From the NCBI GenBank assembly GCA_963666205.1, contig OY762654.1, positions 1,440,001-1,504,000 of the forward strand: a stretch of 64,000 nt of DNA, given 5' to 3'. Both the position numbers and the translations under genes were made by a program. The notes under the pieces are model-generated. The model did no database searches. It was not told where the DNA came from and was given only the letters and a program-made list of their open reading frames with translations. The stretch is from Synergistales bacterium (GTDB lineage Bacteria; Synergistota; Synergistia; Synergistales; JAFGMB01). Position 1 is the stretch's first letter, and every line of letters starts with the position of its first letter. This document shows positions 20,565 through 39,804 of the stretch, piece after piece.

Positions 20565-21023
20565 TTATTTACAAAGGCCCTGCTGAATAATATTCCGAAG
20601 AGCTTCCAGGGCCAGGATATAGCCATGGCTTCCAAATCCTGCTATTCGGCCCCTTACAACGGGAGCTATGACGCTTTTATGGCGAAATTCCTCCCTGGCC
20701 TCCGGATTGGATATATGAACTTCTATTACAGGAATGGCAAGGGCTGTTATGCAGTCCCTCAAGGCGTAACTATAATGGGTATAGGCTCCTGCATTGAGAA
20801 CAGCTCCCTGGGCCTCCTTTCGATTTTCCTGCAGTATATCGATAAGGACTCCTTCGGAATTGCTCTGGGAACACCTGACCTCGATCCCCTTACTGTCTCC
20901 CCAGTTACGGCACTTCTCTTCCAGGTCTTCCAGGGTTTCATGTCCATAGACAGAGGGTTCACGCTCACCCAGAAGGTTCAGATTGGGACCGTTAACCACA
21001 AGAAAGACCGGTTTTTTCTCCAT
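20565..21023 (-). CDS. aroQ: Type II 3-dehydroquinate dehydratase
   Basis: NGPNLNLLGEREP..YG, NAGAYTHYS, EVHISN. Confidence 0.95.
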   Translation of the reverse strand: MEKKPVFLVVNGPNLNLLGEREPSVYGHETLEDLEEKCRNWGDSKGIEVRCSQSNSEGVLIDILQENRKEAQGAVLNAGAYTHYSYALRDCITALAIPVIEVHISNPEAREEFRHKSVIAPVVRGRIAGFGSHGYILALEALRNIIQQGLCK

Positions 21024-23764: not shown

Positions 23765-23766
23765 TA

Positions 23767-24615: not shown

Positions 24616-25901
24616 GCAGCATTCCTCCCCCTGACCTTCTCCATATTTTCAAAGAATCCGGGATCGGATATTGCTACTGAGGAGGTGTCGTCGATAGTGA
24701 TCTCCCCTTCAGAAACAAGGGAGGCTATGGACAGGGTCATTACGATCCTGTGGTCATTGTAACTACGCACCTTTGCTCCATGTAGATGGCAGGGACCCTT
24801 GATGATCCAGCCGTCATCCTGTTCCCGGATATCAGCACCGAGGGCGGAAAGGCCTTCTGCTACAGCATGGATACGGTCACACTCCTTGAATCTCAGTTCC
24901 CTGGCTCCCCTTACTTCTGTAATTCCCTGCGCCTGTGTCGCTGCAAGGGCAAGAATGGGAAGTTCGTCCACCAGGGAGGGGATCTCTTCCGCATCTATGA
25001 CAGTTCCTCTCAGGACAGATGTTCTGACAAAAAGATCAGCTACATTCTCTCCACCCCATTTCCTGAGATTGCGGATCTCGGGGTTAAGACCCATCCTCTC
25101 CAGAACCCTGAGGGCGCCAGTCCTGGTGGGGTTCATTCCTGTATCCTCTATTTTCAGGCCTCTTTCAGAACAGAGGACTCCTGCAACTATCCAGAATGAG
25201 GCTGCAGAGAAATCTCCGGGGACAGTCCAGCTTCCTCCGGGTATCTCATTGCAGGGGTAGACCGTAACTGAAAGGCCTTCTCTCTGGAGTGGCACTTCGA
25301 GGAAATCCAGCATTATCTCGGTATGATCCCGGGTAAGCCTTTTTTCATTGACAGTAGTACTGCCGGAAGCGGAAAGCCCTGCAAGAAGGAGGGCCGTCTT
25401 CACCTGGGCGCTGGCAACGGAAGGAGAATGTTCACCACCTGAAAGCCGGGCCCCTCTTATGGCAAGGGGAAGCCTTTCTCCACCTTCGCATCCGTCGATC
25501 CGGGCCCCCATAGCCTGAAGGGGACGGACTACTCTCGCCATGGGGCGCATTCGCAGGCTTTCATCTCCTGAAATCACGGCAAAGAAACCGGGTATTCCGG
25601 CAAGGAGTCCCGTCATCAGACGGGCTGTAGTCCCTGAATTTCCTGCATCCAGTACTCCCTGGGGATCAAGAACTCCCTCTCCGCTGCTTATGTTCACCAT
25701 GCCGTCCTTCCTGACAACGCGACAGCCAAGCCGGGAGAGGCATTTCAATGTGCTGGCACAGTCTGCTCCTGGAGAAAAATTATCAACTGTGACCCCTTCC
25801 CGGGAAAGAGCACCTAGGAAGGCTGCCCTGTGTGAAATGGATTTGTCCCCCGGAAGGGTTATGGTTCCTGCTATTTTCCCCATTCTCTCAATGGTCTTCA
25901 T
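24612..25901 (-). CDS. aroA: EPSP synthase (class II type, operonic copy)
   Basis: PGDKSISHR, GNSGTTAR, ASAQVK, RDHTE, KECDR, DHRI. Confidence 0.95.
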   Translation of the reverse strand: MKTIERMGKIAGTITLPGDKSISHRAAFLGALSREGVTVDNFSPGADCASTLKCLSRLGCRVVRKDGMVNISSGEGVLDPQGVLDAGNSGTTARLMTGLLAGIPGFFAVISGDESLRMRPMARVVRPLQAMGARIDGCEGGERLPLAIRGARLSGGEHSPSVASAQVKTALLLAGLSASGSTTVNEKRLTRDHTEIMLDFLEVPLQREGLSVTVYPCNEIPGGSWTVPGDFSAASFWIVAGVLCSERGLKIEDTGMNPTRTGALRVLERMGLNPEIRNLRKWGGENVADLFVRTSVLRGTVIDAEEIPSLVDELPILALAATQAQGITEVRGARELRFKECDRIHAVAEGLSALGADIREQDDGWIIKGPCHLHGAKVRSYNDHRIVMTLSIASLVSEGEITIDDTSSVAISDPGFFENMEKVRGRNAA

Positions 25902-25920
25902 GGCCTCTCCCTGTCCTTTC

Positions 25921-26985
25921 CTAGATCACTGGAATGGCGCCGCAGATCTTTTCTCTCTCCTCCTGAACAGGAAGAGCGGGTATAAGACGGGCTATCATAT
26001 CCATGAGCTGCGAGAATTCACTGCAGGACAGAGACTGGTCTCCATCGCACAAAGCTTCTTCAGACCTTGGGTGGACTTCTATGATCAGTCCATCGGCACC
26101 AGCGGCCAGAGAAGCCATGCTCATGGGTGTGACCAGGCTGCGAATACCCGTTCCGTGGCTTGGATCAACTATCACCGGCAAGTGGGACAGGGATTTTACA
26201 AGGGGTACTATATTGAGATCGAGAGTATTCCTTGTCCTGGTCTCAAAGCTCCTGATACCCCGCTCGCAGAGGATAACATTGAAATTGCCTCCACAGAGAA
26301 TGTATTCCGCCGCCTGAAGCCATTCATCTACTGTTGACATGGCTCCCCTTTTAAGGAGTACGGGTTTGTCTACTTTTCCCAGGGCCTTCAGAAGGGGGAA
26401 GTTCTGCATATTACGGGCTCCCACCTGGAAAATATCTATATGAGGTTCCAGCCATTCTATGGCTTCAATGGACATGACTTCCGTCACTATGGGAAGACCG
26501 GTTTCCTCTTTGGCTTCACGGAGAAGGGCGATCCCTTCGCTTCCAAGACCCTGAAAGGAGTAGGGATTTGAACGGGGTTTGAAGGCTCCGCCACGAAGAA
26601 CTGATGCTCCAGCCTTTTTAACGGCCAGGGCGGCATCTCTGATCTGTCGTCTGTTCTCAACCGCACAGGGTCCGGCCATGATGATCCTGTTACCTCCGCC
26701 TATGGTCACACCCGGTGCTATCTTTACGATACTGCTCTTTCCCCCGGTAAGTTCCCTGCTGGCGAGAGGAAAGGGACTATCTGTGGTTATTACTTCCATC
26801 ACGCCCGGGAGTCCCTGCAGTGCCAGTTCCCTTTTCATTGTTCCTTCGACCATTACCAGGCATCCGTCGTAATAGGGGATAAAGCGAGCTTTGCAGCCTT
26901 CTTTTTCAACTTTCTGAAACACATTAGCCACATTGACGTTGGATGTACTGTTCTGCATTCTGATGATCGTTCGCTTATTTCCCAT
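25921..26985 (-). CDS. aroF: DAHP synthase type I-beta with N-terminal regulatory domain
   Basis: AGPCAVE, GGAFKPRSNPYSFQG, GARNMQN, DPSHG. Confidence 0.95.
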   Translation of the reverse strand: MGNKRTIIRMQNSTSNVNVANVFQKVEKEGCKARFIPYYDGCLVMVEGTMKRELALQGLPGVMEVITTDSPFPLASRELTGGKSSIVKIAPGVTIGGGNRIIMAGPCAVENRRQIRDAALAVKKAGASVLRGGAFKPRSNPYSFQGLGSEGIALLREAKEETGLPIVTEVMSIEAIEWLEPHIDIFQVGARNMQNFPLLKALGKVDKPVLLKRGAMSTVDEWLQAAEYILCGGNFNVILCERGIRSFETRTRNTLDLNIVPLVKSLSHLPVIVDPSHGTGIRSLVTPMSMASLAAGADGLIIEVHPRSEEALCDGDQSLSCSEFSQLMDMIARLIPALPVQEEREKICGAIPVI

Positions 26986-27034
26986 TTTTACTTACCTCCC
27001 TGATATCTGTTTAATAAATTTTAATAAAGGATAT

Positions 27035-27073
27035 AAAAAAAGCCGGAACCCGGTGAAAACCGGGTTCCGGCTT
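27035..27073 (-). terminator. Attenuator terminator upstream of aroF
   Basis: AAGCCGGAACCCGGT-TTTC-ACCGGGTTCCGGC followed by T7 on the minus strand. Confidence 0.9.
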
Positions 27074-27103
27074 AATAATGTCTGATTTTCAGCTTATTGC
27101 TTT

Positions 27104-27259
27104 TTACAGCTGTATGCCAGGTTCATCAAGACAGGCCGATAACCGATTTTCACGTACTGAAAGACCACTGGCATAGGAATAAAGCCACTGGCCGCTGGTA
27201 AAGTAGAAATAATAGTATGCGAAAGAGCTATCGATGGTCTTACCAGGTACGTGCATCAT
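27104..27259 (-). CDS. aro operon leader peptide, 51 aa (MMHVPGKTIDSSFAYYYFYFTSGQWLYSYASGLSVRENRLSACLDEPGIQL)
   Basis: GAGGAG RBS; cluster of Phe/Tyr/Trp codons; lies between promoter and terminator. Confidence 0.85.
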   Translation of the reverse strand: MMHVPGKTIDSSFAYYYFYFTSGQWLYSYASGLSVRENRLSACLDEPGIQL

Positions 27260-27321
27260 TATCGAACGTGTCTCCTCTCTTCAAAAAGATTTTGTCTGAC
27301 TTTTCAAATATATTGTCGGCC

Positions 27322-27350
27322 ATGATAAAGCCCTCAGAGCCTTTTGTCAA
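27322..27350 (-). promoter_or_regulatory. Sigma70 promoter of aro leader/operon
   Basis: TTGACA-17-TATCAT. Confidence 0.8.
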
Positions 27351-27369
27351 GGCTATTATGTAAAAAAGT

Positions 27370-28179
27370 CTAAAAGGTCCTGTCGGTCCATCTGGAAAGG
27401 GCTTTTTTTATTCCGCCCCGGGCACTGTGTTCTATGAGCCATCTGTCAATTACTTTCTTGAAACCATATTCCCCCGGGCCCAGCATGAAGGCAAATCTGG
27501 CGCAGGTAAAGGGCCGGTGGGGATTAATGGCCTTGAGAAGGGGACATCGTTTTTCCCAGACCATGGCCTCAATGGCATCGGTTATCATAATATCGGCCTC
27601 TCCCCTGATTATCATGTCAAAAACGGTCATATTGTCCTTGTGGACTGTAATTGTTGCTCTACTGAGCTTTTTCCTGGCAAAGGCTTCATTGGTCCCTCCC
27701 GGATTGACGATCACTCTCACCCCTGGACGGTCTATGTCTTCCAGGCTGTCAAAGAGGCGGGCCCTCTCTCTGGATGAGATGGGAGCTTTTCCTGTCCTGA
27801 AATAGGTGGCACTGAAAAGGGCTTTCTTTCTACGCTCCTTCGAAATGGCAATGCCTCCCACTGCAATATGAAATTTCTCTGACAGAAGATCATCCATGAG
27901 ATCTCTCCAGGAGGTGGGGATGAACTGAATGCCCACTCCGAGGAAACGGGCAAAGTTCTCTGCCGTATCTATATCTATACCCTCGAGACACTCCCCGTTA
28001 TCGTAACTGAAGGGAAGATAATCTGCAGGAGTGCCCACCCGGAGAATCTGACAATCCCTGATCTCCTCAAGAACGGATATTTTCTCGCGGTTTTCCCGAA
28101 TCTTTACCATCTCTCCATATTTCCAGTGAATAGATGGATAGAAAGGTTCGCTTTTACCTCCTGGTTTTGTCTGGATCAT
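27370..28179 (-). CDS. pheC: Cyclohexadienyl dehydratase (PheC-like, SBP family 3 fold)
   Basis: GTPADYLPFS, VNPGGTNE, MITDAIE motifs; aro context; Phe-only leader upstream. Confidence 0.78.
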   Translation of the reverse strand: MIQTKPGGKSEPFYPSIHWKYGEMVKIRENREKISVLEEIRDCQILRVGTPADYLPFSYDNGECLEGIDIDTAENFARFLGVGIQFIPTSWRDLMDDLLSEKFHIAVGGIAISKERRKKALFSATYFRTGKAPISSRERARLFDSLEDIDRPGVRVIVNPGGTNEAFARKKLSRATITVHKDNMTVFDMIIRGEADIMITDAIEAMVWEKRCPLLKAINPHRPFTCARFAFMLGPGEYGFKKVIDRWLIEHSARGGIKKALSRWTDRTF

Positions 28180-28213
28180 TCTTATTCCTCCCTCTCTCTA
28201 ACAGCCTTAAAAT

Positions 28214-28246
28214 AAAAAAGCCGGGACCCTGAAAAGGGTCCCGGCC
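28214..28246 (-). terminator. Attenuator terminator upstream of pheC
   Basis: GCCGGGACCCT-TTTC-AGGGTCCCGGC followed by T6 on the minus strand. Confidence 0.9.
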
Positions 28247-28261
28247 TGAAAAAGCTTCTGG

Positions 28262-28354
28262 TCAAATAGCATCCAGAGCTCCAGGAGGGGACCCGCAGCT
28301 AAAAAAGAAGCTAAAAAAGGAAGATACATTATTAAATATGTTATGGAGCTTCAC
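28262..28354 (-). CDS. Phe leader peptide, 30 aa (MKLHNIFNNVSSFFSFFFSCGSPPGALDAI)
   Basis: AGGAGGTG RBS, GTG start, six Phe codons and no Tyr/Trp. Confidence 0.85.
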   Translation of the reverse strand: MKLHNIFNNVSSFFSFFFSCGSPPGALDAI

Positions 28355-28389
28355 GGGTTTCACCTCCTGATGGAATCTGATTTCAGACG

Positions 28390-29256
28390 CTATTTCACTG
28401 CTATGTCCCTGAGAATAGCCTCACGGGAGATCCTGCCCTCTTCAGCCATCACTTCAAACTTTTCGGGAGAAGAGTTTTTGAAATTCTGCAGTATTTCTAT
28501 CAATCTGTCAAGGAGAACTTCCATATTTTCATGATTTGTAGCCCACATATCAGCTGCAAGCCAGGCCGGACCTGAAGCCACCCTGGATGTATCCCTGAAA
28601 CCCCCTCCTACCATTCTGGGCAGGTTGGGAAAACTTTTTTTCTGTTCATCCGCCAGTAATGCAAGGGATGAAGCAAGTATGGTGGGGATATGGCTCACAC
28701 AGGCAAGGATCCTGTCATGTTCGACGGGATCCAGATAGACCGCATTTGAACCTATGGAGGACACTATTTCCGCAGCCAGTTCCATTGCCCGGGGATCGGT
28801 CAGACCATGGGGAACAATAGCACAGTCAGCCTTCCTGAACAGGTCGGGAGATGCATTTTCGATCCCGCTGTACTCCTTTCCTGCCATTGGATGGAGTCCT
28901 ACATAGGCCCCTCCCCAGATCCTTGACAGGGTTTCCCCTATCTCTTTTTTAGTACTCCCCACATCCATAACGGCAGCGGGGGTCTGGGCAAAAAAAGGTT
29001 TCAACATGAGACTTACCTCCTCCATGTTACGGAGGGGGACTGCCAGGATCAGTAAATCAATGGCGTCTGCAAATTCCGCAGCAGTGTAACAGGGCTCGAA
29101 CACAAAACCCATATCAAGGGCAGTTCTCAGAGCTTCGGGGTTCCGGTTCCATCCAAAAACCTGCTTTGCCGCTCCCGATCCTCCAAGGGACGCCGCAAGG
29201 GAACCTCCTATAAGACCAAGTCCTGCTATTCCAACGTTAAGATCTGATAATGTCAT
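28390..29256 (-). CDS. tyrA: Prephenate/arogenate dehydrogenase
   Basis: GLGLIGGS, DVGSTK, HPMAGKE, HD..A.VSH, GGGFRDTSRVA. Confidence 0.93.
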   Translation of the reverse strand: MTLSDLNVGIAGLGLIGGSLAASLGGSGAAKQVFGWNRNPEALRTALDMGFVFEPCYTAAEFADAIDLLILAVPLRNMEEVSLMLKPFFAQTPAAVMDVGSTKKEIGETLSRIWGGAYVGLHPMAGKEYSGIENASPDLFRKADCAIVPHGLTDPRAMELAAEIVSSIGSNAVYLDPVEHDRILACVSHIPTILASSLALLADEQKKSFPNLPRMVGGGFRDTSRVASGPAWLAADMWATNHENMEVLLDRLIEILQNFKNSSPEKFEVMAEEGRISREAILRDIAVK

Positions 29257-29292
29257 ATTTTTCTCATCTTCTTTTCAGGGTAATTGTCGGGA

Positions 29293-29321
29293 ATCATAAA
29301 CTTGAGGGTCTATTGTGTCAA
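29293..29321 (-). promoter_or_regulatory. Sigma70 promoter of tyrA
   Basis: TTGACA-17-TATGAT. Confidence 0.7.
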
Positions 29322-29478
29322 GGCAAACTGGAGCGAGCCTGGAAAAACCTTATGAACTCCGGACAAAACCCTATTCTCTCGCGGAGAGAAGGGAAGGGAA
29401 ATGGGAAACACGGAAGAAATCGAAATGGCTGTCTACTTGGAACTTATTGCGAAAATGGCATTAACCCCAAGTCAACCT

Positions 29479-29521
29479 GAAGATACAGGCCGGACATTAA
29501 TTCTGTCCGGCCTGTATCTTC
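29479..29521. terminator. 18-bp perfect hairpin downstream of the glyoxylate reductase gene
   Basis: GAAGATACAGGCCGGACA-7-TGTCCGGCCTGTATCTTC. Confidence 0.55.
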
Positions 29522-29552
29522 CTGTTTTTTCAGCTAACTGTCCGGTGCTGGA

Positions 29553-30536
29553 CTATTTTTTCAGAACTTCTGGATTCAGAAGATCTGGCGGCGTCTTTCC
29601 TTCCAGCCCCGCAAGGAGGTTAGTCACTGCCTTGATGGCCATATCCTCTCTGGTCTTTGTACTTGCGCTTCCAAGGTGGGGCGTCATGGCGATGTTATCA
29701 AGCAGCAGAAGGGGGTCTTCGGCATCCATGGGCTCCTTCTCGAAAACATCCAGGCCGGCTCCGGCGATCCACTCCTCCTTCAAGGCTCTGGCAAGGGCTT
29801 TCTGATCAACGACAGGACCCCTGCTGGTATTGATGAGAATGGCTGTTTTCTTCATCATCTTCAGTTCCTTTTCTCCTATGAGACTCCTGGTCTCCGGAGA
29901 GAGGGGACAGTGAATAGATATAAAATCACAGGTTCCCAGGAGATCCTCAAAGGAAAGGAATGATATTCCCAGTTCTTTTTCCAGTTCCGGTCTCCTGTTC
30001 CTTCCTGTATAGCAAAGCTTCATATCAAAACCCTTTGCCCTCTTTGCCATTGCCTGGCCTATCCGGCCAAGGCCTATTATTCCAAGGGAGGATCCTGCCA
30101 CCTGCTGGCCCAGGAGCATTCTGGGACCCCAGTACCTCCAGCCTCCGGATCGCATGAGCCGTTCTCCTTCGCTCATCCTTCTGGCAGCCATAAGAAGAAG
30201 GCCAAAGGCCAGGTCTGCGGTCGCATCTGTGAGCACTCCAGGTGTATTGGTAACAAGGATGCCCTTCTCTGTGGCATAAGCCACATCTATATGATCGTAA
30301 CCCACGCTGTAACTGCTTATGATCCTCAGATTCCTGCCTGCATCAATTGCTTCCCGATCCATTTTTGTTGTCGCTCCAGGAATGGCTACCACTCCATCGG
30401 CAATGGAGATCTGTTCAAGAAAATACTCCCTTACAGGCGGCTCAATGTCTCTCCATATCTCAAAATTAGCCTTTGTCAGAAGCATATCGAGGCCTATATC
30501 GGGGATATTAGTCGCAATAAATACTCTTGGTAACAT
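29553..30536 (-). CDS. D-glycerate dehydrogenase / glyoxylate reductase (D-2-hydroxyacid dehydrogenase family)
   Basis: VGYDHID, GIIGLGRIG, INTSRG, GLDVFEKEP, PHLGSA. Confidence 0.92.
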   Translation of the reverse strand: MLPRVFIATNIPDIGLDMLLTKANFEIWRDIEPPVREYFLEQISIADGVVAIPGATTKMDREAIDAGRNLRIISSYSVGYDHIDVAYATEKGILVTNTPGVLTDATADLAFGLLLMAARRMSEGERLMRSGGWRYWGPRMLLGQQVAGSSLGIIGLGRIGQAMAKRAKGFDMKLCYTGRNRRPELEKELGISFLSFEDLLGTCDFISIHCPLSPETRSLIGEKELKMMKKTAILINTSRGPVVDQKALARALKEEWIAGAGLDVFEKEPMDAEDPLLLLDNIAMTPHLGSASTKTREDMAIKAVTNLLAGLEGKTPPDLLNPEVLKK

Positions 30537-30741
30537 GGAAGAGTCCCTCCAGTAACGGCATTCTGCCGGGCTGTCAGTATTATAACTTAACTTTTCGAAG
30601 TAGAGGATAAACGCAACGATTATACACTATACACGGTCAGGGTATTATCTAAATATTCCGAAAAAATATAATTGCTAAAACAATGTCAAGAGTTTACACT
30701 ATTCCCTATAATGCATCAAAACAATTTTAGGGGGGAATTTG

Positions 30742-31695
30742 ATGTTCAGGAAAGGTTTCAGCATCGCTTTTTGCGCTGCAGCGCTAGTCGGATTAATGGT
30801 TTGCTCCGCAGGAGCAGTGACATTTGTCAACATCGGAACGGGTAGCACGGGAGGTTCGTACTATCCGCTGGGAGCTACAATGGCCAAGATCTGGAACGAC
30901 CACATCGACGGGATCAAAGCCAGCGCACAGTCCACGGGGGGAACTGTGAACAATATCGAACTTATGGGAAGTAAAGAGGCTGATGCCGCATTCATGGACG
31001 GTCTCTATTATTATGCTTACCTGGGCAGAGGAAAGTACGAAAACAATCCTCAGAAATTCATAAGGGCAATGGTACCTCTCTATCCTGAACCAACCCAGCT
31101 TATGGTCGCCAAAGGCAGCGGGATCAAAACCCTCGCCGATTTCAGGGGCAAAAGAGTATCCATAGGCGCAGTCGCCAGTGGAACAGAGGTCACTGCAAAA
31201 CAGCTTTTAAAAGCAGCCGGAATAGATCCCGATAAGGATATCAAAGCCGAGAACCTGGGTGTAGGAGACACAGCCAAAGCATTCGGCGACAAACGCATTG
31301 ATGCAGCCGTCATGGTCGGATCCCTTGGCATGGCTGGAGTGGTAGAAGTAACTACTCTGGGACTGGTTGATTTTATCGATGTGCCGAAGGATGTCATGGA
31401 CAAGGTTATCAACGATACTCCCTACTGGGTTCCCTTCGATATCCCCGCGAACTACTACAAGGGACAGACGAACCCCGTAAAGACCTACGCAAGCTGGAAT
31501 ATTATAGCCATCAACGAAGCAGTGGATGCCGAACTTGTCTACAATATGACAAAATCGCTCTTTGAATGCAAGGAAGACCTCCTCGCAGTAAGGGCAAAAA
31601 TGGAAACAATGACTCAAGAGAACATCAAGTACATTCTTGTCCCCCTCCACGAGGGTGCAGAAAAATATTACAAGGAAGCAGGTGTTCTGAACTAG
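30742..31695 (+). CDS. TAXI-family TRAP solute-binding protein
   Basis: Signal peptide, GTGSTGGSYY, STGGTVNN, PLHEGAEKYY. Confidence 0.92.
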   Translation: MFRKGFSIAFCAAALVGLMVCSAGAVTFVNIGTGSTGGSYYPLGATMAKIWNDHIDGIKASAQSTGGTVNNIELMGSKEADAAFMDGLYYYAYLGRGKYENNPQKFIRAMVPLYPEPTQLMVAKGSGIKTLADFRGKRVSIGAVASGTEVTAKQLLKAAGIDPDKDIKAENLGVGDTAKAFGDKRIDAAVMVGSLGMAGVVEVTTLGLVDFIDVPKDVMDKVINDTPYWVPFDIPANYYKGQTNPVKTYASWNIIAINEAVDAELVYNMTKSLFECKEDLLAVRAKMETMTQENIKYILVPLHEGAEKYYKEAGVLN

Positions 31696-31711
31696 GAAGG
31701 AATAATATTCC

Positions 31712-31745
31712 AGGGGATAGATTCCGTAAGGTCTATCCCCTTTTT
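31712..31745 (+). terminator. Intergenic terminator/stabiliser after the TAXI SBP gene
   Basis: GGGGATAGATT..GGTCTATCCCC followed by a T-run. Confidence 0.65.
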
Positions 31746-31774
31746 CGTGCCTTATATGTAAAGGGGTGCAGTCA

Positions 31775-33757
31775 ATGGAAAAAATAGACAAGCCGGATGA
31801 TGCTCTTATCGTCGAAAAACAGACTTTTGAAGAAGAGGATATACAGCATCTGGTAGAACAATATGATGTTGAAAGCCGTTACAGGCGCCTTGAGGGATTA
31901 CAGGGGAAAATAGTGTCCTTGTGGCTGGTGGCCATGTCCTGTTTTCACATGTATACGGCAGGAATAGGTCTTCTCCCTACTTCCATTCACAGAGCGGTAC
32001 ATCTTACCTTCGCGATAGTAGCGGTTTTCCTTCTATACCCTGCTAAAATTACCATGAACAGGAACGCTATACCCTGGTATGACTGGATCCTGGCACTTTT
32101 TGGAGGCATAGGAACAGCCTACATAGTTTTTTTCTTCAACGTGATCGCGGAGAGAGGAGCACAAGTTCAGCCTCATGAGATCTGGTTGGGAATAATGACC
32201 ATTATCCTTGTCCTTGAAGCAGGAAGAAGGGTGGTTGGAAATGTCCTTCCCTGTCTGAGCACTCTATTTCTGCTTTACTGTTTTTTCGGAAGATATATGC
32301 CGGAAATGTTCATGCACAGGGGATACTCCATTTCAAGAATAATCCAGCATATGTACCTTACCCAGGAAGGAATATTCGGAGTAGCTCTGGGGGTTTCAAG
32401 TACTTTTGTCTTCATGTTCATCCTTTTCGGAGCCTTTCTCAGTAAAAGCGGAGGGGCAAGATTTTTCAATGAGCTTTCCCTTGCTGTTGCAGGCCATTCT
32501 CCCGGGGGCCCGGCAAAGGTGGCCATAGTTGCATCAGGAATGCTGGGAACGATCAACGGCTCTTCTGTTGCCAACGTTGCAACCACAGGTGCATTTACCA
32601 TACCGCTGATGAAAAAGGTGGGATATAAACCCGAGTTCGCCGGAGCCGTCGAAGCCTGCGCCTCTACAGGCGGACAGTTTATGCCGCCCATAATGGGAGC
32701 CGGAGCTTTCATCATGAGCGAATTTCTGGGTATTTCATACCTGAGAATAGCAGCAGCGGCAATAATTCCTGCCATCCTTTACTATTCTGCCCTGTTTATT
32801 GCCGTCCATATCCGGGCCAGGGACAAAAAACTGGAGGGACTTCCCCGGGAATCTCTACCAAGGATCAAGGAAGTCATGTCAAAAGATGGACACCTCCTTA
32901 TTCCGCTGGCAGTAATCATTTTCATGCTGCTGAGAAAATATACTCCCCTCGCCGCCGCCTTCTGGGGGATCCTTTCCGTACTGGGGGTAGCCCAGATCAG
33001 GCAGCATACCAGGATGGGTTTCAGATCCGTATTTAAAGCCATGGAAGAAGGTGCACGAGGAGCCCTGGGAGTTGCACTGGCATGTGCCCTCGTGGGTTTT
33101 GTCGTTGGGACATCCTCTCTGACAGCCCTTGGACTTACAATTTCCAACAACATCATAGAAATAGCAGGGGGAAGACTCCTTCTTACCCTGGTAATGGCCA
33201 TGGTGGCATGCCTTGTGCTGGGAATGGGGCTTCCCACAACAGCCAACTACATTGTCACCAGCACCATGATAGCCCCTGCACTCATCAAGATGAGCGTTCT
33301 CCCCCTGGCAGCACATCTCTTTGTCTTTTATTTCGGGATAATGGCTGACCTTACACCCCCGGTATGTCTTGCCGCATTTACAGGTGCCGGAATAGCGGGT
33401 GGAAATCCGAGCCAGACCGGCTTTAACGCCACAAGGATAGCCATGGTAGCCTATCTGATACCCTATACATTTATCTACAGCCCCATGATACTCCTTGAAA
33501 ATCCAAGTATGGTACCCCTTATGATCCTTGTATTTTCAGCCTTTACAGGAGTTATAGGATTGGCGGCAGCTCTTCAGGGATGGATGTTCATACGATTGAA
33601 TTCCATGATCAGGCTTATCTTCCTCTGCTGTTCCATAGCAGCATTTCTTCCTGGAACTGCTTTCAAGATCGGGGGCACCATGTCAATGGGAATTCTCTTC
33701 ATTATTCTGAAAAAGTGGTCAAGCCGGGGAACCGAACTCGAATTACAGGAGGGATAG
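31775..33757 (+). CDS. TRAP fused permease (4TM/12TM)
   Basis: GGPAKVA, GSSVANV, ASTGGQFMPP, GMGLPTTANY, TPPVCLAAF. Confidence 0.93.
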   Translation: MEKIDKPDDALIVEKQTFEEEDIQHLVEQYDVESRYRRLEGLQGKIVSLWLVAMSCFHMYTAGIGLLPTSIHRAVHLTFAIVAVFLLYPAKITMNRNAIPWYDWILALFGGIGTAYIVFFFNVIAERGAQVQPHEIWLGIMTIILVLEAGRRVVGNVLPCLSTLFLLYCFFGRYMPEMFMHRGYSISRIIQHMYLTQEGIFGVALGVSSTFVFMFILFGAFLSKSGGARFFNELSLAVAGHSPGGPAKVAIVASGMLGTINGSSVANVATTGAFTIPLMKKVGYKPEFAGAVEACASTGGQFMPPIMGAGAFIMSEFLGISYLRIAAAAIIPAILYYSALFIAVHIRARDKKLEGLPRESLPRIKEVMSKDGHLLIPLAVIIFMLLRKYTPLAAAFWGILSVLGVAQIRQHTRMGFRSVFKAMEEGARGALGVALACALVGFVVGTSSLTALGLTISNNIIEIAGGRLLLTLVMAMVACLVLGMGLPTTANYIVTSTMIAPALIKMSVLPLAAHLFVFYFGIMADLTPPVCLAAFTGAGIAGGNPSQTGFNATRIAMVAYLIPYTFIYSPMILLENPSMVPLMILVFSAFTGVIGLAAALQGWMFIRLNSMIRLIFLCCSIAAFLPGTAFKIGGTMSMGILFIILKKWSSRGTELELQEG

Positions 33758-33776
33758 CTGTCTTGTCGGGAAAAGA

Positions 33777-34349
33777 TCACTCCATCATCTCAAAGAGTAC
33801 ATGAAAGCTTTGAACAGTTTCCTTTGCTCCTCTCCGGAATCTTGTAAAAAGAAAGTAGACCAGAAAGGGCGGCCATAGTACATGGATCATCTGAAAGACC
33901 TGAAGGGTCTGCCATCTTAAGGCCGGAACGCTGCTTGAGAGGGCAAAAAACCATACGATCAGGGAGATGCCGAATATAAAAAGAGGTTCCACTACAAGGA
34001 CAAGGATCGCCATTATTGTGACCATAACCCTTTTGAGCCCTGTCATATCAAGAACAGAGGACAGACTGGAACCAGCATCTTTTTTTTCGATACTCATCTG
34101 AAGACGGGACAGGCCGATCTTCATCACAAGGGCTCCGTCCCCTGTTCTGGTGACGGGAAATTTTTCAGACAGACGAAGGGAGATCTCCCTGAGCGCTTTT
34201 TCGGATCCTATCTGCAGATTATCAGTCCTCGCCGACAAAAGGCGGGGACTTTCCCTTATGGAGAGAAAAAGGAATATGGAAAATATCCAGGACAGGATCC
34301 CGCAGGATACCGCTGCAAGCCAGATGATCCACGAAAGGACCGGGGTCAT
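33777..34349 (-). CDS. Hypothetical membrane protein
   Basis: GGAGG RBS, three hydrophobic segments. Confidence 0.6.
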   Translation of the reverse strand: MTPVLSWIIWLAAVSCGILSWIFSIFLFLSIRESPRLLSARTDNLQIGSEKALREISLRLSEKFPVTRTGDGALVMKIGLSRLQMSIEKKDAGSSLSSVLDMTGLKRVMVTIMAILVLVVEPLFIFGISLIVWFFALSSSVPALRWQTLQVFQMIHVLWPPFLVYFLFTRFRRGAKETVQSFHVLFEMME

Positions 34350-34461
34350 GATATACCTCCAGGAAATAAAGTTTCCAAGTGTTTCAATATTAATATAATT
34401 CAGTATAATAAAAAAGAGCAGATAAAGTCTTCTAGAGTGCAGAGAAGAAGGATGCGATAAT

Positions 34462-35580
34462 ATGAGACCGGTCAATCTTTTCTATATCACTGCAGGAAGC
34501 GGACACAGATCAGCAGCAGATGCGCTGAGGGAAGCCCTTGATGAAAGAGATATACCCAGCGTCCTTCTGGATATACTTTCCTTTTCCAACAAGCTTTTCA
34601 AATGGACCTACAGCGATGGTTATGAATTCGCCAGTGAACATGCCCAAATAGCCCTTAAAGGTCTTTATAAGCTGACCAACCAGGACAGGGACTCGAGCAA
34701 CCTCGTCCAGTTCCTTGAAGAATTCAACACCAGGAACGTGGAAGGCTTTCTTGAATATATAAGGGATAATCCCCTTGTATCTTCCATATGTACTCATTTT
34801 TTCCCCGCCTATGTTCTCTCTAAACTTAAAAACGAAGGAGCTTATAGTGGGAAGATCTATGTGAACATTACCGATTACGGGTTTCATAAAATGTGGTACA
34901 TGGAGGGAATAGACAGGTATTTTGTGGCCAGTGATAACGTAAAGCAGAAACTGTTGGAGATGGGCGCGGAAGAAAACCGAATTTCCCTTTCCGGTATACC
35001 CATTTCCCGAAGATTCAGCAACATTGAAGACCCTGAAAAGATCCTTGGGGAGAACAACCTGGACGGGCGAAAATTTACCCTGCTTTTCATTACCAGCTCC
35101 ATATCTGACAGCGTGGCACTCAGGATACTGGATAACCTTTATCTTTCGGATATGGAAATGAACATCCTGGTCGTTGCAGGTCGGAACAGAGATCTTTTTT
35201 CCAGCCTTGCCACCTATCATTCCCAGAACGGCATCACCTTTCGCAAGTATGAATTCATCGACAACATGGATGAACTAATGTCGATCTCCGACCTCCTGAT
35301 AACCAAACCGGGAGGACTTACGGTAAGTGAGGCACTAAGCAGCGGATTACCCCTTCTCATGTTCAGGCCTATCCCCTACCAGGAAACCAATAACGCATCA
35401 CACGTTGAAGAAATAGGTGCAGGAGTTCTTGCGGTCAATGAAGTGGAGATCATGGAAATAATCGAAAAACTTTACTTCAATCCCCACATGCTCGAAACAA
35501 TGAAGACAAACTGCCTGAAAAATGCCTGCCCCTTTGCCGCAGACACCATCATTGAAAGCATAATGGAAGACCTGGATTAA
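34462..35580 (+). CDS. GT28 diacylglycerol glycosyltransferase, copy 2
   Basis: Same motifs as 7358-8479; clear paralogue. Confidence 0.88.
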   Translation: MRPVNLFYITAGSGHRSAADALREALDERDIPSVLLDILSFSNKLFKWTYSDGYEFASEHAQIALKGLYKLTNQDRDSSNLVQFLEEFNTRNVEGFLEYIRDNPLVSSICTHFFPAYVLSKLKNEGAYSGKIYVNITDYGFHKMWYMEGIDRYFVASDNVKQKLLEMGAEENRISLSGIPISRRFSNIEDPEKILGENNLDGRKFTLLFITSSISDSVALRILDNLYLSDMEMNILVVAGRNRDLFSSLATYHSQNGITFRKYEFIDNMDELMSISDLLITKPGGLTVSEALSSGLPLLMFRPIPYQETNNASHVEEIGAGVLAVNEVEIMEIIEKLYFNPHMLETMKTNCLKNACPFAADTIIESIMEDLD

Positions 35581-35699
35581 TATCAGCTATTGATGGGTAT
35601 GAATTTTTTTCAGATCCAATGTCTTTCAACCTTTCTTTAAATACTATCCCGGAAGGCTTTTTTAAATCGTGCTATTGACAAAAATTATCAGCTCGTATT

Positions 35700-35721
35700 A
35701 TACCTATAGGGTGTAGGGTAT
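35700..35721. promoter_or_regulatory. CsoR/CstR-type operator candidate
   Basis: ATACCTATAGGGTGTAGGGTAT overlapping the -10 region of a TTGACA (35675) promoter. Confidence 0.5.
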
Positions 35722-35778
35722 TTCATTCAATAAGTTATAAAGTTCACATGCAGTGTGACCATTAGAGGAGGAGAAGAA

Positions 35779-37467
35779 ATGAGCAAAAGAATTCTTATCG
35801 TTGGAGGAGTCGCCTGCGGAGGTAAAACCGCCGCGCGCCTTATGAGGATAGATCCCGAAGCTGAAGTGACCATGCTGGAGAAGGGGGAATATCTGAGTTA
35901 TGCAGGATGCGGCCTTCCATACTATGTGGGTGGAGTGGTCCATGAATACAAGGACCTCCTTTCCACAGCCATCGGAGTAGTGAGGGACGAGAACTATTTC
36001 CGAAAGGTCAAGAACGTTGAGGTAAAGACAAAACACATGGCCACAAAGATCGACCGGGAAAAGAAAGAGGTCACAGCCCTGGATCTTGCAAGCGGAGAAG
36101 AGAAGATCTTTCCCTACGACAAGCTGGTCCTTGCAACAGGTGCAAGTCCTGTAAAACCACCCATTCCAGGTTCAGACCTGAACAGGGTCTTCACCCTGTG
36201 GACCATGCCCGATGCACTGGGCATGAGAGCCGCCCTTGACAGCGGAAAAATAAAGAAAGCTGTGGTAGTTGGAGCAGGTCTAATAGGTATGGAAGTAGTG
36301 GAAGCCCTTCATGACAGGGGTGTGGAGGTCTCCGTTGTGGACTTCCTTCGCTCTCCTCTACCCGCCCTTGTGGATGAGGAATTTGGAAACAGGGTGAATT
36401 GTGTACTGAAGTGCAAGGGAATAAACTTCTACGGCGGCGAAAAAGTGGTTGAAATCCTTGGAGAGGAAGGTTACGTTACCGGAGTAAAGACAGATAAACG
36501 TGAGCTTGAGGCAGATATGATCCTTATGGCTATCGGTGTAAGGCCCAATACCATCCTCGCAAAGGAAGCCGGGCTCGAGATGGGTGATTTCGGTGCCATA
36601 GCTGTGGATTCCCACATGCGCACCAGCGATCCCGATATATACTCCGGAGGAGACTGTGCCATAGGACGACACATCGTTACCGGTAAGCCCTGCTGGCAGC
36701 CCATGGGCTCCACGGCCAACCGCCAGGGAAGGGTCATAGCCGACAATATCGCAGGCAAGGGGACATGCTTCAAAGGTGTCCAGAGTACGGCCATAATGAA
36801 ACTCTTCGAGTACACGGTAGGAAAGACAGGGCTTACGGAAGAGCAGGCCCGTGATAACGGTTTCGATGCCGTTTCCATGACTATCGTTGACCCCGACAAG
36901 CCTCACTTCATGCCCCAGGGCGGAGTGGTCATGATAAAACTGGTGGCGGACAGGTGGTCCAGAAAAGTGCTGGGAGCCCAGTCCTTCGGAACAGGCAAGA
37001 TAGACAAGCGTCTGGATGTCCTGGTAGCTGCTGTTAACGGCGGACTGACCATAGACGACCTGGCAGACCTGGATATAGCTTACGCTCCGCCCTTCACTAC
37101 TGCTCTCGATCCGGTAACCCATGCAGCCAATTCCCTGAAGAACAAGATGGACGGCCTGGTTAAGACCTATTCCGCCTCCGAGCTCAAAAAGAAGATGGAC
37201 GATGGAGATAACCCCGTTCTGGTGGACCTCAGGACCCAGCCGGAGATAGAATCACAGGGACAGCTTCCCTACGAACAGGTGGTCCATATCCCCCTGGGAC
37301 AGTTCTGGGAAAAGGCTCCGGAACTACCGAAAGACAGGGAGATAATAACCTATTGCAAGGTCTCCATAAGGGGATGGGACGCTTATACCATTCTCAACAG
37401 GCTCGGATTCAAAAAGATCGCTTTACTCGAAGGCGGAATTCTCGGCTGGCCTTTTGAAAAGAAATAG
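35779..37467 (+). CDS. CoA-disulfide/persulfide reductase with C-terminal rhodanese domain
   Basis: GGVACG, SYAGC active site, GAGLIG, AYAPPF, rhodanese YCKVSIRG. Confidence 0.92.
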   Translation: MSKRILIVGGVACGGKTAARLMRIDPEAEVTMLEKGEYLSYAGCGLPYYVGGVVHEYKDLLSTAIGVVRDENYFRKVKNVEVKTKHMATKIDREKKEVTALDLASGEEKIFPYDKLVLATGASPVKPPIPGSDLNRVFTLWTMPDALGMRAALDSGKIKKAVVVGAGLIGMEVVEALHDRGVEVSVVDFLRSPLPALVDEEFGNRVNCVLKCKGINFYGGEKVVEILGEEGYVTGVKTDKRELEADMILMAIGVRPNTILAKEAGLEMGDFGAIAVDSHMRTSDPDIYSGGDCAIGRHIVTGKPCWQPMGSTANRQGRVIADNIAGKGTCFKGVQSTAIMKLFEYTVGKTGLTEEQARDNGFDAVSMTIVDPDKPHFMPQGGVVMIKLVADRWSRKVLGAQSFGTGKIDKRLDVLVAAVNGGLTIDDLADLDIAYAPPFTTALDPVTHAANSLKNKMDGLVKTYSASELKKKMDDGDNPVLVDLRTQPEIESQGQLPYEQVVHIPLGQFWEKAPELPKDREIITYCKVSIRGWDAYTILNRLGFKKIALLEGGILGWPFEKK

Positions 37468-37477
37468 TTAACTTATT

Positions 37478-37527
37478 GAAATAAAAAAGGGGCTCTTCCA
37501 GAGTTGGAAAAGCCCCTTTTTTATTTC
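37478..37527. terminator. Bidirectional terminator
   Basis: AAAAAAGGGGCT..AGCCCCTTTTTT. Confidence 0.85.
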
Positions 37528-37556
37528 GAGGAATTCTTTCTATACCAGATTAAAGG

Positions 37557-37941
37557 ATGGTAAAATCATTACGAATTACCAGGAGCTGGATAAAAACTGA
37601 AATGTCTATCCTGCCCGGAGGATCCAGAAAACAGAAAATTCCGAAGGACCAAAAAAAATCTTTTTCCACCATTTGCTGTTGCAGCTTCGTATTTCTAAAA
37701 GGACAGGGCCAATACGTTGAGACAGAAGCCGGAACATGATTCACACTATATACCAGATAATGCCGGTATGGGTTACACATTAATGGCCAATCTTTTTCCA
37801 GGAGAAATCTTTGGGAAGATAGCCATGCTGGAGGGCGCTATACCGGGCTGCCCTTCGAAAAGAAATCCTTCCGATATACAGAGGGTTTCAAATGTTGCAT
37901 GCCATCTCTGCATATTGTATAATCCGGTCGATTGCAGTTAA
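37557..37941 (+). pseudogene. Possible degraded cNMP-binding (Crp/Fnr-like) gene fragments
   Basis: Short broken ORFs; LFPGEIFGKIAMLEG resembles the PGD.FGE.AL motif. Confidence 0.3.
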
Positions 37942-37983
37942 TATCTGATGAAACAATTTTTCTTGACTAGGAGGGAATTTCTT

Positions 37984-38151
37984 ATGGCAGCAAAGATCGA
38001 CAAAGATACATGCGTAGGTTGCGAAACCTGTGTTGGAACCTGTCCTGTAGAGGCTATTTCCATGGTTGATGGCAAAGCTGAGGTTAACGACAGCTGCGTC
38101 GAATGCGGCGCCTGTGTTTCCGTTTGCCCCGTAGAGGCTATTTCTGTATAG
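37984..38151 (+). CDS. 2[4Fe-4S] ferredoxin
   Basis: Two CxxCxxCxxxCP motifs in 55 aa; GGAGG RBS. Confidence 0.95.
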   Translation: MAAKIDKDTCVGCETCVGTCPVEAISMVDGKAEVNDSCVECGACVSVCPVEAISV

Positions 38152-38173
38152 CATAGGCTCTAAGCAAGTTAGA

Positions 38174-38216
38174 TATAAGAAAAGGACTGCCCCCAAAGGC
38201 AGTCCTTTTCTTATAT
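38174..38216. terminator. Bidirectional terminator after ferredoxin
   Basis: TATAAGAAAAGGACTGCC..GGCAGTCCTTTTCTTATA. Confidence 0.85.
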
Positions 38217-38234
38217 AGAGGTCAGAAAGAGATT

Positions 38235-38498
38235 AAAAAGGGAATCCCTAAAGGGGGGCGGGATTCCCTTGGATTCGAGGTCGGAAAAGGTTGAATTATC
38301 CTTTTTATGGAACCTGCCAGAAGATATTTTTAAAAGACTTTTGCGTGCCCGGAGGTGGGGGTATCTACTCCGGAAAAGTTTTATAAAAATAGCCCTGTAA
38401 AACAAGGTCCATTCTATTAGAGGGGGGGAACCACAGTAATAGAAAATAGCAACATTTTCTCGACACTCTAGCCTGAACAAGCAGGCAAAACGAATAAT
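38235..38498 (-). ncRNA. Candidate structured sRNA A (~265 nt)
   Basis: Own promoter TTGACA-17-TAAAAT (38533-38505) and own terminator (38270-38235); no RBS-led ORF; C-rich loops. Confidence 0.6.
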
Positions 38499-38603
38499 GT
38501 AGGGATTTTATACGTGGATGTGTATTTTGTCAAGTTTAGCTTTTGCATATTTATTAGTTTATTTTGATACTACCAGACTTATCGTTTTATACCGTGGAAC
38601 AGT

Positions 38604-38902
38604 AAAAAAGGCCCAGCCTATGAACTGGGCCTTTTCTGATAAGAAGTAGAGGTATGATCGCGATAATGGCGTTATCGGCAAAATTAACGGGTCAAGGAGA
38701 GAGGTTATTACCCTTTTTTTAACAAAGGTAAAGGGGGAATTTGCGTGCTCCAGGAGGCAGATCCGGATAACCTTCGGGGAAAAGGGCCGAATCCTTGGCG
38801 GTAATAACCTCTTGAAATAAACCTTGAAACCCAAATAACGTAAGGGGGAACCAAACGTTCAAAGAGTATGCTTCATATATTTTCAAAGCTCGTTCTTTGT
38901 TG
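38604..38902 (-). ncRNA. Candidate structured sRNA B (~300 nt)
   Basis: Own promoter TTGACA-17-TAAAGT (38937-38909) and terminator (38635-38604); 12-bp long-range stem; motifs shared with A. Confidence 0.6.
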
Positions 38903-39227
38903 GCGTATACTTTATACTGCATATATAATTTTGTCAACCGTATTTTTGGCTTTTTTGTAAAGATAAAGTAAAATTAGGGTTTTAAAGAATAGTTAATGTA
39001 TGCTGAATAAACCCCTAAATTGAACACTCCGTTACGAAATTAACGCCTTTTAAAATGAAGATCTCCAGCCTTTGAAATGAAAGCAATAACCGGAAACTAC
39101 CTTTGACGGGTATACAACGAGAAATCGGGGATATTGTCAAAAACCTGAAACTTCAGGTACTTCACGGAGGGGAAGGCTTCGACAATATCCCCGGAGATAG
39201 GGGGTAAAGAACTCTTTTCTCCCTTCC

Positions 39228-39335
39228 CTATCGAAGACAGGGAAGATATGGGGGGGTATTGGGGAAAGAAAGTTCCCTTGCTCCTGTTTCTTTCTTTTTT
39301 CCTGCCTTCTGTTTTTCATCTTTGATCTGTGCCAT
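39228..39335 (-). CDS. Small ORF, 35 aa (MAQIKDEKQKAGKKKETGARELSFPNTPPYLPCLR)
   Basis: GGGAGGT RBS upstream of ATG; may be a truncated gene. Confidence 0.4.
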   Translation of the reverse strand: MAQIKDEKQKAGKKKETGARELSFPNTPPYLPCLR

Positions 39336-39375
39336 TTCTATAGACCTCCCTGATATTTTTCGTTTATATCTGCTT

Positions 39376-39543
39376 TCAGTACTTCCACCATCGGGGAATG
39401 GAAATACTCTTTACCTCTTCCTTTCTTTGAAAGGGTCCAGGCTTGTTCTCGGGAAGAAAGGGCGAATATCTGAACCCCGAAAGAGGTGTATCCATCACCT
39501 GCTCCTCCGGTATGCTTCGCCAGAAAAGGCTTTCTTCATCCAT
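39376..39543 (-). pseudogene. 55-aa ORF after the orphan attenuator, possibly a TrpE N-terminal relic
   Basis: AGGAGTGAGG RBS; DTPLSGF-RYSPFLPENKPG weakly resembles TrpE DTPLS...YSFLLES..G. Confidence 0.35.
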
Positions 39544-39571
39544 ATCCCTCACTCCTTTCCTCAAAGACCAT

Positions 39572-39610
39572 AAAAAAAACCGGGCTCCCTTAAAGTTCGG
39601 GAACCCGGCC
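39572..39610 (-). terminator. Attenuator terminator (orphan)
   Basis: GCCGGGTTCCC-loop-GGGAGCCCGG followed by T8. Confidence 0.88.
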
Positions 39611-39633
39611 TGAGATCTACTGGTCAACGCCTG

Positions 39634-39720
39634 TCAGACGCCGACCACCTCAGGTGAGTCCCCGCCGCTAAACCAGTAATAAAAGTAATAGCTGTTACTG
39701 TAAGAACTATTCTTTTTCAC
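39634..39720 (-). CDS. Aromatic leader peptide, 28 aa (MKKNSSYSNSYYFYYWFSGGDSPEVVGV)
   Basis: GAGGTG RBS, GTG start, seven consecutive aromatic codons YYFYYWF. Confidence 0.85.
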   Translation of the reverse strand: MKKNSSYSNSYYFYYWFSGGDSPEVVGV

Positions 39721-39775
39721 AGAGACACACCTCGCCTTCATCAATTCGTTTAAATTTTCAGAATTATTGCCGAAT

Positions 39776-39804
39776 ACTTTATACCCCTTATCCCCATTTG
39801 TCAA
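39776..39804 (-). promoter_or_regulatory. Sigma70 promoter of the orphan leader
   Basis: TTGACA-17-TAAAGT. Confidence 0.7.

Follow-up and report, generated by a model that had tools for sequence, protein, structure and literature searches.

The enterobacterial trpL, pheL, hisL, thrL, leuL and ilvL leaders (RF00513, RF01859, RF00514, RF00506 and RF00512) combine a short open reading frame (ORF) carrying cognate codons with mutually exclusive antiterminator and terminator structures, and place an intrinsic terminator before the first structural gene. The same design is found in three units (hereafter designated U1, U2 and U3) within a 64,000-nt stretch of a Synergistales bacterium genome (contig OY762654.1, positions 1,440,001 to 1,504,000; hereafter the window). 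U2 and U3 fall into a family, designated R1, that has no sequence or model similarity to the enterobacterial leaders (no gathering-score Rfam match) and whose leader stop codon, unlike theirs, is located in the apical loop of the predicted antiterminator, so that the whole antiterminator 5' strand would be translated. The mixed Ile/Leu/Val control predicted for some R1 units resembles the multivalent attenuation of ilv operons. The Leu/phe leader of Lactococcus lactis (RF01743) uses one motif with runs of Leu or Phe codons before different operons and is, to our knowledge, the only precedent for one frame with several specificities. Enterobacteria employ an unrelated leader RNA for each operon and the Lactococcus leader comprises two specificities in one species, whereas R1 represents a single frame with at least six specificities, distributed phylum-wide and matching no Rfam model at gathering score.

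The closest described RNA is the PBC-10 motif, which was found from Thermovirga lienii and 'cautiously' named a protein-binding candidate (Stav et al. 2019, BMC Microbiol 19:66, PMC6429828). The 53-58 reported examples come mostly from Synergistaceae and metagenomes, with one from an actinobacterium; they contain an intrinsic terminator and an alternative structure, are always oriented into the downstream gene and occur in several copies per genome. The genes most often found behind them are those for the acetolactate synthase small subunit and phenylacetate-CoA ligase; the others serve amino-acid transport or metabolism. The authors suggested a protein dimer bound to a palindrome while allowing for other mechanisms, and the passages on this motif report neither a leader ORF nor control codons. 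R1 agrees with this description in its Synergistaceae-centred range, its terminator and alternative structure, its multiple copies and its association with ilvH and phenylacetate-CoA ligase genes. In one relative (G012), moreover, an R1 match at 318934-319043 falls within the interval of the founding PBC-10 example (318758-319077) and precedes a phenylacetate-CoA-ligase-type gene. On the strength of these gene associations and coordinates, U2 and U3 very probably belong to PBC-10. Compared by description and coordinates, R1 differs from the published motif in the ORF that each copy carries, led by a ribosome-binding site (RBS) and with codons fitting the operon. A first-pass annotation of the window had supposed that such a system was undescribed in Synergistota. 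For the RNA motif, which the passages on PBC-10 very probably describe, this does not hold; for the leader-peptide reading it does, in that we found no description of leader-peptide attenuation in Synergistetes or Synergistota beyond PBC-10 in the literature outside subscription journals.

We put at about 0.85 the probability that U1, U2 and U3 are ribosome-mediated (leader-peptide) transcription attenuators and that U2 and U3 are two copies of one frame re-used within Synergistota, a reading drawn from sequence and predicted structure. The mechanism would be of a known kind; what appears new is the leader-peptide reading of an orphan motif and the scale of its retuning.

Three leader units in the window

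All three units lie on the minus strand where the first-pass annotation had placed them, and every part it described (RBS, short ORF, aromatic codon block, hairpin and terminator) could be located. U2 is situated between a prephenate dehydrogenase gene (28390-29256) and an SBP_bac_3 gene (27370-28179). Its features are:

28206..28309, minus strand: structured core, comprising the antiterminator 5' strand, an apical hairpin that includes the leader stop codon, and the terminator (R1, 90.2 bits)
28262..28354, minus strand: leader ORF of 30 codons, with a GTG start at 28354 and an RBS 8 nt upstream
28301-28318, minus strand: control block, 5 Phe codons out of 6
28262-28264, minus strand: leader stop codon, in the antiterminator apical loop
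28212..28247, minus strand: predicted intrinsic terminator with T-run (stem 28218-28247, 13 bp, 9 G-C pairs)
27370..28179, minus strand: gene predicted to be controlled by U2, 269 codons, SBP_bac_3 (Pfam)

U3 has a hairpin and terminator of the same kind:

39776..39804, minus strand: promoter-like site, TTGACA-17 nt-TAAAGT
39634..39720, minus strand: leader ORF of 28 codons with a GTG start
39670-39690, minus strand: control block of 7 codons (4 Tyr, 2 Phe, 1 Trp)
39565..39678, minus strand: structured core (R1, 68.5 bits)
39580-39610, minus strand: terminator stem, with the T-run at 39572-39579

The leaders fold far better than dinucleotide shuffles of the same sequences (z = -4.65, -4.07 and -5.64 for U1, U2 and U3, with 0/200 shuffles equally stable), so the observation of structured leaders holds. 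The reported alignment of U2 with U3 was reproduced, and its compensatory pairings form in folds from which the terminator 3' arm is omitted, with 10 pairs between the terminator 5' arm and the conserved 5' block in U2 and 14 in U3; the compensatory change originally quoted is one example among many across the copies. The likeness to trpL and pheL attenuators noted in the first-pass annotation is likewise borne out by the RBS-led ORFs, the cognate codons and the predicted antiterminator and terminator. Three metatranscriptome runs contain 15-18% of the sampled words, and their contigs partly cover the region. Some contig pieces span the U1 and U2 terminators; such contigs show neither ends, strand nor levels and may include DNA carry-over, and we draw nothing from them.

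The product of the gene behind U2 matches solved cyclohexadienyl dehydratases with E values of 1e-59 to 4e-66, which identifies it as a predicted cyclohexadienyl (prephenate/arogenate) dehydratase of the PheC/CDT type; no signal peptide is evident in it. A search for the prephenate dehydratase PDT domain (PF00800) found none in this genome and was positive in 14/14 control genomes. The Phe run of U2 thus precedes the only candidate Phe-branch enzyme.

U3 had been described as an orphan. Two small ORFs follow it, both conserved in three further genomes (L198, L200, L195), and U3 is therefore no orphan:

39376..39543, minus strand: aromatic-rich ORF of 55 codons directly after U3, with no match in Pfam and no known family
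39228..39335, minus strand: second small ORF of 35 codons, with a conserved C-terminal L-P-C-L-R/C and no known family

The 55-codon ORF is 96% identical in the same-genus genome G001, 49% identical over its full length in another genus and weakly matched in a third, and each homologue directly follows the R1 match of its genome. The DNA after U3 was also considered as a decayed ligase gene; a tblastn search with a relative's ligase found nothing (best E 0.15).

One frame with many codon runs

Further copies emerged when a short-word BLAST of the units against the genome returned look-alikes with other codon runs; a profile search followed, and after it a search with R1, a covariance model built from ten U2/U3-type copies. 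A scan for aromatic-rich short ORFs and a 4-mismatch motif scan were too noisy and were not used. In this genome R1 gives 10 strong matches (68-100 bits) and two weak ones, of which the 38.7-bit match stands before a membrane-protein gene. The other, a degenerate 36.8-bit copy without a T-run (L006; G000:C1:2320045-2320156, plus strand), is found in the ilv cluster, flanked by ilvB and a second ilvN, and may be a decayed attenuator. The copies have in common a conserved 5' block, a variable apical hairpin containing the leader stop codon, and a terminator, and this structured part is nearly identical among them; they differ in the codon run just upstream of it.

These codon runs vary with the genes that follow. 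Behind two tandem Ile-rich units lie an ilvN-like gene, ilvC and ilvB; panB, ilvE and a branched-chain amino-acid binding protein follow a unit with a Val run, and leuC, leuD, leuB and leuA one with a Leu run. Units with mixed Ile/Val/Leu or aromatic and Ile codons stand before an aminotransferase, before a hydratase-like gene, and before an unknown membrane protein that has a class-III aminotransferase after it. The tandem Ile units (L001/L016; G000:C1:2316525-2316877, plus strand) are near-identical, lie 241 nt apart and are conserved as a tandem in G001. The idea of three aromatic units only thus gives way to about a dozen R1 copies in this genome and, across the phylum, to Ile/Val/Leu, Leu, Met, Thr, Phe and Phe/Tyr/Trp runs; the proposal that a lineage-specific frame had been duplicated and retuned through its control codons agrees with the copies, their codon runs and their downstream genes.

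Leader ORFs are retained in relatives. In all of the best 32 R1 matches there (32/32), an RBS leads an ORF whose end falls 36-48 nt inside the core. A further 60 matches of lower score, drawn from about 20 genomes, all pass relaxed criteria, and 55 of them also a strict RBS test; in the remaining five the ORF is in frame, but its RBS is weaker or, once, a strong RBS accompanies an ATT start. A U2 orthologue in another genus keeps a Phe run before an SBP_bac_3 gene, the U3 orthologues of G001, G002 and G003 keep the Tyr/Phe/Trp block, and those of G002 and G003 have a similarly placed TTGACA box. The conservation of leader ORFs and aromatic codons that the first-pass annotation had proposed to look for is therefore seen for U2, for U3 and for U1-type leaders.

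The control codons track the downstream amino-acid genes. Met-run leaders precede genes for NlpA/MetQ-type binding proteins (four) or NIL-domain ABC ATPases (two) in six of seven cases, the seventh standing before a gene without a family. Both Thr-run leaders precede homoserine dehydrogenase, and a mixed Met/Thr leader precedes aspartokinase. Relatives' Leu-run leaders are found before aconitase-family (leuC-type) genes (three), a leuA-type synthase (one) and SNF-family transporters (two). Twelve Ile/Leu/Val leaders precede the acetolactate synthase small subunit, with others before SNF or DctP transport genes, a PALP enzyme or the hydratase-like family, and 11 Phe or Phe/Tyr leaders precede AMP-binding ligases of the phenylacetate-CoA-ligase type.

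This pattern bears on the proposal that a dimeric regulator binds the PBC-10 RNA at a palindrome close to the foot of the main stem, with binding deciding on the terminator and the ORFs incidental. Such a regulator was tentatively proposed for the motif (PMC6429828), some copies have a near-palindrome in the 5' block, and CodY regulons have reportedly been proposed for Synergistetes (PMC9318921). The structured part is, however, nearly identical whichever genes follow it (Met, Thr, Leu, Ile/Val or Phe/Tyr). The sole systematic difference is the codon block of the ORF, which is present with its RBS in the copies counted above and fits the downstream pathway, a specificity that a single protein could not confer. 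The 'palindrome', moreover, is accounted for by the antiterminator pairings and by those of P0, a small hairpin within the 5' block. We consider a protein-binding element very unlikely.

The constancy of the structured part argues equally against direct sensing of an amino acid or tRNA by the RNA, as a riboswitch or T-box and with no role for translation, since it leaves no ligand-specific pocket or specifier. Riboswitches do occur in Synergistota genomes, and T-boxes are common in neighbouring phyla. Among Rfam 15 models, including the Phe, Trp, His, Thr, Leu and Leu/phe leaders and the T-box, none reached its gathering score in the 64-kb window. Eight unit-bearing loci returned sub-threshold noise, the highest scores being 21-25 bits where the gathering scores are 40-59; a Phe_leader hit of 24.7 bits (gathering score 55) lies upstream of the unit in its locus. 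Direct sensing seems to us extremely improbable.

By profile score, the R1 frame appears re-used many times per genome within Synergistota, with up to about 12-19 matches in a genome. Matches at E<=0.001 occur in 50/61 genomes of relatives, covering all 27 of the 27 sampled genera, and at E<=1e-5 in 92/151 Synergistota genomes (42/54 genera), including 4/4 genomes of a family outside the window's order; one Synergistota genus gave none in 27 genomes. Outside the phylum, R1 matched none of five single genomes and none of 101 genomes of a Deinococcus-type phylum. In 151 genomes of a Firmicutes-type phylum it found nothing genuine, the sole borderline hit being a plain gene-end terminator. An exact scan for a 17-nt core returned at least 120 stretches. 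Of 80 loci scored, R1 accepted only three as true, the others being chance matches; the three come from an Acetomicrobium hydrogeniformans metagenome-assembled genome (MAG) and a Synergistales MAG, all Synergistota, and two have scores identical to those of R1 matches in G001.

Several protein families recur behind these leaders. Two multi-pass membrane-protein families without a Pfam match (L011:95-1270, L206, L258, L245; L213, L248), with about 8 and about 11 predicted helices, directly follow leaders rich in aromatic and Ile codons and are candidate amino-acid transporters. A family of soluble proteins, 265-288 residues long and weakly similar to 2-oxopent-4-enoate hydratases (L010:276-1079, L204, L205, L212, L018), follows Ile/Leu/Val leaders in several genera and adjoins the leu operon in this genome. 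The phenylacetate-CoA-ligase-like genes found behind Phe/Tyr leaders in many Synergistota (L165, L215, L217, L218, L225, L230, L237, L238, L241, L247, L260) would accordingly be induced by starvation, which hints that aryl acids may serve to make Phe and Tyr rather than being catabolized.

Alternative pairings and proposed mechanism

When R1 copies are folded with the terminator 3' arm left out, which mimics the moment before its transcription, the antiterminator forms in 40/40 and then in 91/91 distinct copies, the conserved 5' block pairing with the terminator 5' arm through a median of 11 and a minimum of 6 base pairs in the 91 copies. Cognate blocks and arms are better matched than permuted ones: predicted duplex energies are -12.07 versus -10.6 +/- 0.29 kcal/mol for 31 pairs and -17.37 versus -14.63 +/- 0.25 kcal/mol for 85 pairs, and in each set 0/5000 permutations reach the cognate value. 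The antiterminator was assessed by such per-sequence folds and duplex comparisons, column-wise covariation having been dropped because the copies differ in register by one base. Among 41 aligned copies, changes on both sides are found at 9/11 pairs of the terminator helix and 4/7 pairs of P0, and 95% of cells in the structure are paired, compared with 35-62% in slid controls.

The peptide tail encoded by R1 leaders is commonly Ser/Cys-Gly-Ser-Pro-Pro-Gly, and its frame is shifted or changed in copies where the nucleotides still pair, suggesting that the RNA rather than the peptide is the conserved object under selection. This observation weighs against the possibility that the short ORFs encode functional small hydrophobic peptides, lipoprotein-like signals or membrane peptides, with the hairpin merely their terminator. 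Many Ile/Leu/Val leaders do combine a basic N-terminus with a hydrophobic core and a lipobox-like Ser/Arg-Cys-Gly. An invariant lipobox Cys is lacking, however, as many copies have Ser, Gly or Arg instead; leaders with Thr, Met or Phe/Tyr runs do not resemble signal peptides; and every unit is oriented into an amino-acid gene of a pathway that suits the codon run. A functional peptide is thus, in our judgment, most unlikely.

Each unit brings together the elements that define an attenuator, namely an RBS-led short ORF, a cognate codon run, and a predicted terminator and antiterminator that share the terminator 5' arm. In R1 about 6 nt separate the end of the control block from the outer stem of the antiterminator, and the ORF crosses the 5' strand and stops in the apical region. 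From what was computed here (the parts and how they are conserved, the alternative pairings, and the match of codons to genes) we infer an amino-acid response, its timing and a role for P0. Transcription of each unit would start at a promoter of its own or one further upstream, and the unit would begin with the RBS and short ORF. The block of control codons would lie just upstream of the antiterminator 5' strand, the ORF would stop in or near the apical loop, and the antiterminator 3' strand would be the terminator 5' arm. When the cognate charged tRNA is scarce, a ribosome would stall on the block and leave the 5' strand free to capture the emerging terminator 5' arm, so that RNA polymerase would continue into the genes for biosynthesis or uptake. 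With the amino acid in good supply, the ribosome would translate on and occupy the antiterminator strand, so that the terminator would form and transcription would end. P0 may hold the 5' strand in the absence of a ribosome, in the manner of the trp 1:2 hairpin, and would then favour termination of untranslated leaders. The tandem copies before ilv genes, here and in G001, would be expected to sharpen the response.

Several points weigh against ribosome-mediated attenuation as we describe it. The stop codon lies 20-32 nt past the start of the antiterminator strand, so a ribosome at the stop would leave the strand partly uncovered and termination would be a matter of kinetics and of the steric hindrance that loop closure meets. 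Stalling on the last control codon would place the ribosome over part of the outer stem. Because both strands are G+C-rich, a 5' block that has been shuffled retains 6.4 pairs with the arm on average. The copies are related rather than independent, and their kinship inflates the permutation tests; the covariation counts rest on alignments fitted to the model, and all structures are predicted. Finally, several downstream genes belong to no known family (the two membrane-protein families, the hydratase-like family and the small ORFs after U3), and the codon-to-gene logic is drawn from the other copies.

A bolder extension, which we regard as speculative and rather unlikely, is that the R1 frame constitutes a natural plug-in attenuator, a chassis spread by duplication and retargeted to any amino acid by rewriting about 5-8 codons, which has largely assumed the part played elsewhere by T-boxes, riboswitches and repressors. 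Pro-Pro-Gly is encoded exactly on the antiterminator strand in most R1 copies. It may be more than a consequence of the pairing, and could cause a programmed, EF-P-sensitive pause in which the ribosome is held on the strand and the decision is timed.

A second leader family before DAHP synthase

U1 stands before an aro operon encoding DAHP synthase, EPSP synthase, shikimate dehydrogenase, chorismate synthase and a shikimate kinase/3-dehydroquinate synthase fusion. Its features are:

27322..27350, minus strand: promoter-like site, sigma-70-like, TTGACA-17 nt-TATCAT (11/12 consensus matches)
27104..27259, minus strand: RBS-led leader ORF of 51 codons
27200-27223, minus strand: control block, 7 Phe/Tyr codons out of 8
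27163..27193, minus strand: hairpin P1, with two further leader Tyr codons in its loop
27134..27151, minus strand: antiterminator 5' strand within the leader ORF, pairing with the terminator 5' arm and loop in the predicted fold
27033..27073, minus strand: predicted intrinsic terminator with T-run (stem 27040-27073, 15 bp, 10 G-C pairs)
25921-26985, minus strand: DAHP synthase gene, first of the aro operon, with the U1 terminator just upstream
20992..26985, minus strand: aro operon predicted to be controlled by U1 (Pfam; survey of downstream genes)

Leaders of the U1 type are located upstream of DAHP synthase in 22 genomes, this one (G000) included; the motif search missed 4 of 26 relatives' loci examined. 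They have a common order of Phe/Tyr block, P1, and a strand complementary to the terminator 5' arm and loop. The strands of P1 encode Gly-Gln-Trp and Ala-Ser-Gly and its loop holds two or three Tyr codons, while the antiterminator strand, which is conserved in relatives, encodes Arg-Gly-Asn-Pro in most. In P1, 98.5% of 198 cells are paired, compared with 25-42% in slid controls, and compensatory changes are found at 3/9 pairs. Folding of U1 without the terminator 3' arm yields the predicted antiterminator. A model of this leader, designated R2, matches 41/151 genomes of the phylum, usually once per genome, and none of 151 genomes of the Firmicutes-type phylum. The R2 result within the phylum is in keeping with a survey for DAHP synthase, which located the gene in 27 of 41 genomes, G000 among them.

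The first-pass annotation had treated all three units as homologous. U2 and U3 are; U1 does not align with either outside the terminator, scores 27.5 bits (E 5e-4) against R1, whose members score 68-100 bits, and gives no full-length R1 match that includes the conserved 5' block. Descent of all three from one ancestral attenuator, with U1 diverged beyond recognition, would fit their common logic, their ORF layout and their G+C-rich type of terminator, as well as the R1 score of U1. That score is, however, mostly due to the terminator, and plain gene-end terminators in this genome reach 18-27 bits; moreover, about 10 families retain P1 and the different antiterminator strand, the marks of a separate, single-copy leader family. 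Common ancestry therefore appears unlikely. As judged by these models, U1 is predicted to work like U2 and U3, is not a detectable homologue of them, and is the local copy of a second, single-copy family of DAHP synthase leaders.

In its layout, U1 resembles by description the uORF-13 motif of Firmicutes, which comprises a short ORF, Phe/Tyr codons in the P1 loop and a terminator before aroF (DAHP synthase) and shikimate genes (PMC6429828), although R2 itself is found in Synergistota and in none of the Firmicutes-type genomes searched. The same source, in the passages on these motifs, describes uORF-12 and uORF-13 as Phe/Tyr leader-ORF attenuators of Firmicutes and cites an aroR attenuator of Actinobacteria (PMC6429828), so aromatic attenuation outside proteobacteria is not new.

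Outside the window, at G000:C1:1969095-1969300 (plus strand), a 15-codon ORF with three consecutive Trp codons precedes a trpC-like gene, trpB and trpA. Its RNA is predicted to pair with a downstream strand and is followed by hairpins and a terminator. It is a member of neither R1 nor R2, and is predicted to be a third kind of leader-peptide attenuator. Elsewhere in the window, two adjoining non-coding units of about 260-290 nt (38200-38950, minus strand) each have a near-consensus promoter (38937-38909 and 38533-38505) and a terminator. They have two short sequence blocks in common, match nothing in Rfam and may be a pair of related small RNAs.

For PBC-10, published without a function, the leader-peptide reading would supply a concrete and testable one. 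In one phylum, branched-chain, aromatic, methionine and threonine genes would be under copies of a single attenuator frame, and since only the codon block differs between copies, the family offers a natural experiment on the evolution of attenuator specificity. The frame may also serve as a compact template for engineered amino-acid sensors. The leaders could help annotation as well: those of the aromatic type precede two unknown families of membrane proteins and a small ORF rich in aromatic residues, and the phenylacetate-CoA-ligase-like genes behind Phe/Tyr leaders point to a Phe/Tyr-responsive use of aryl acids.

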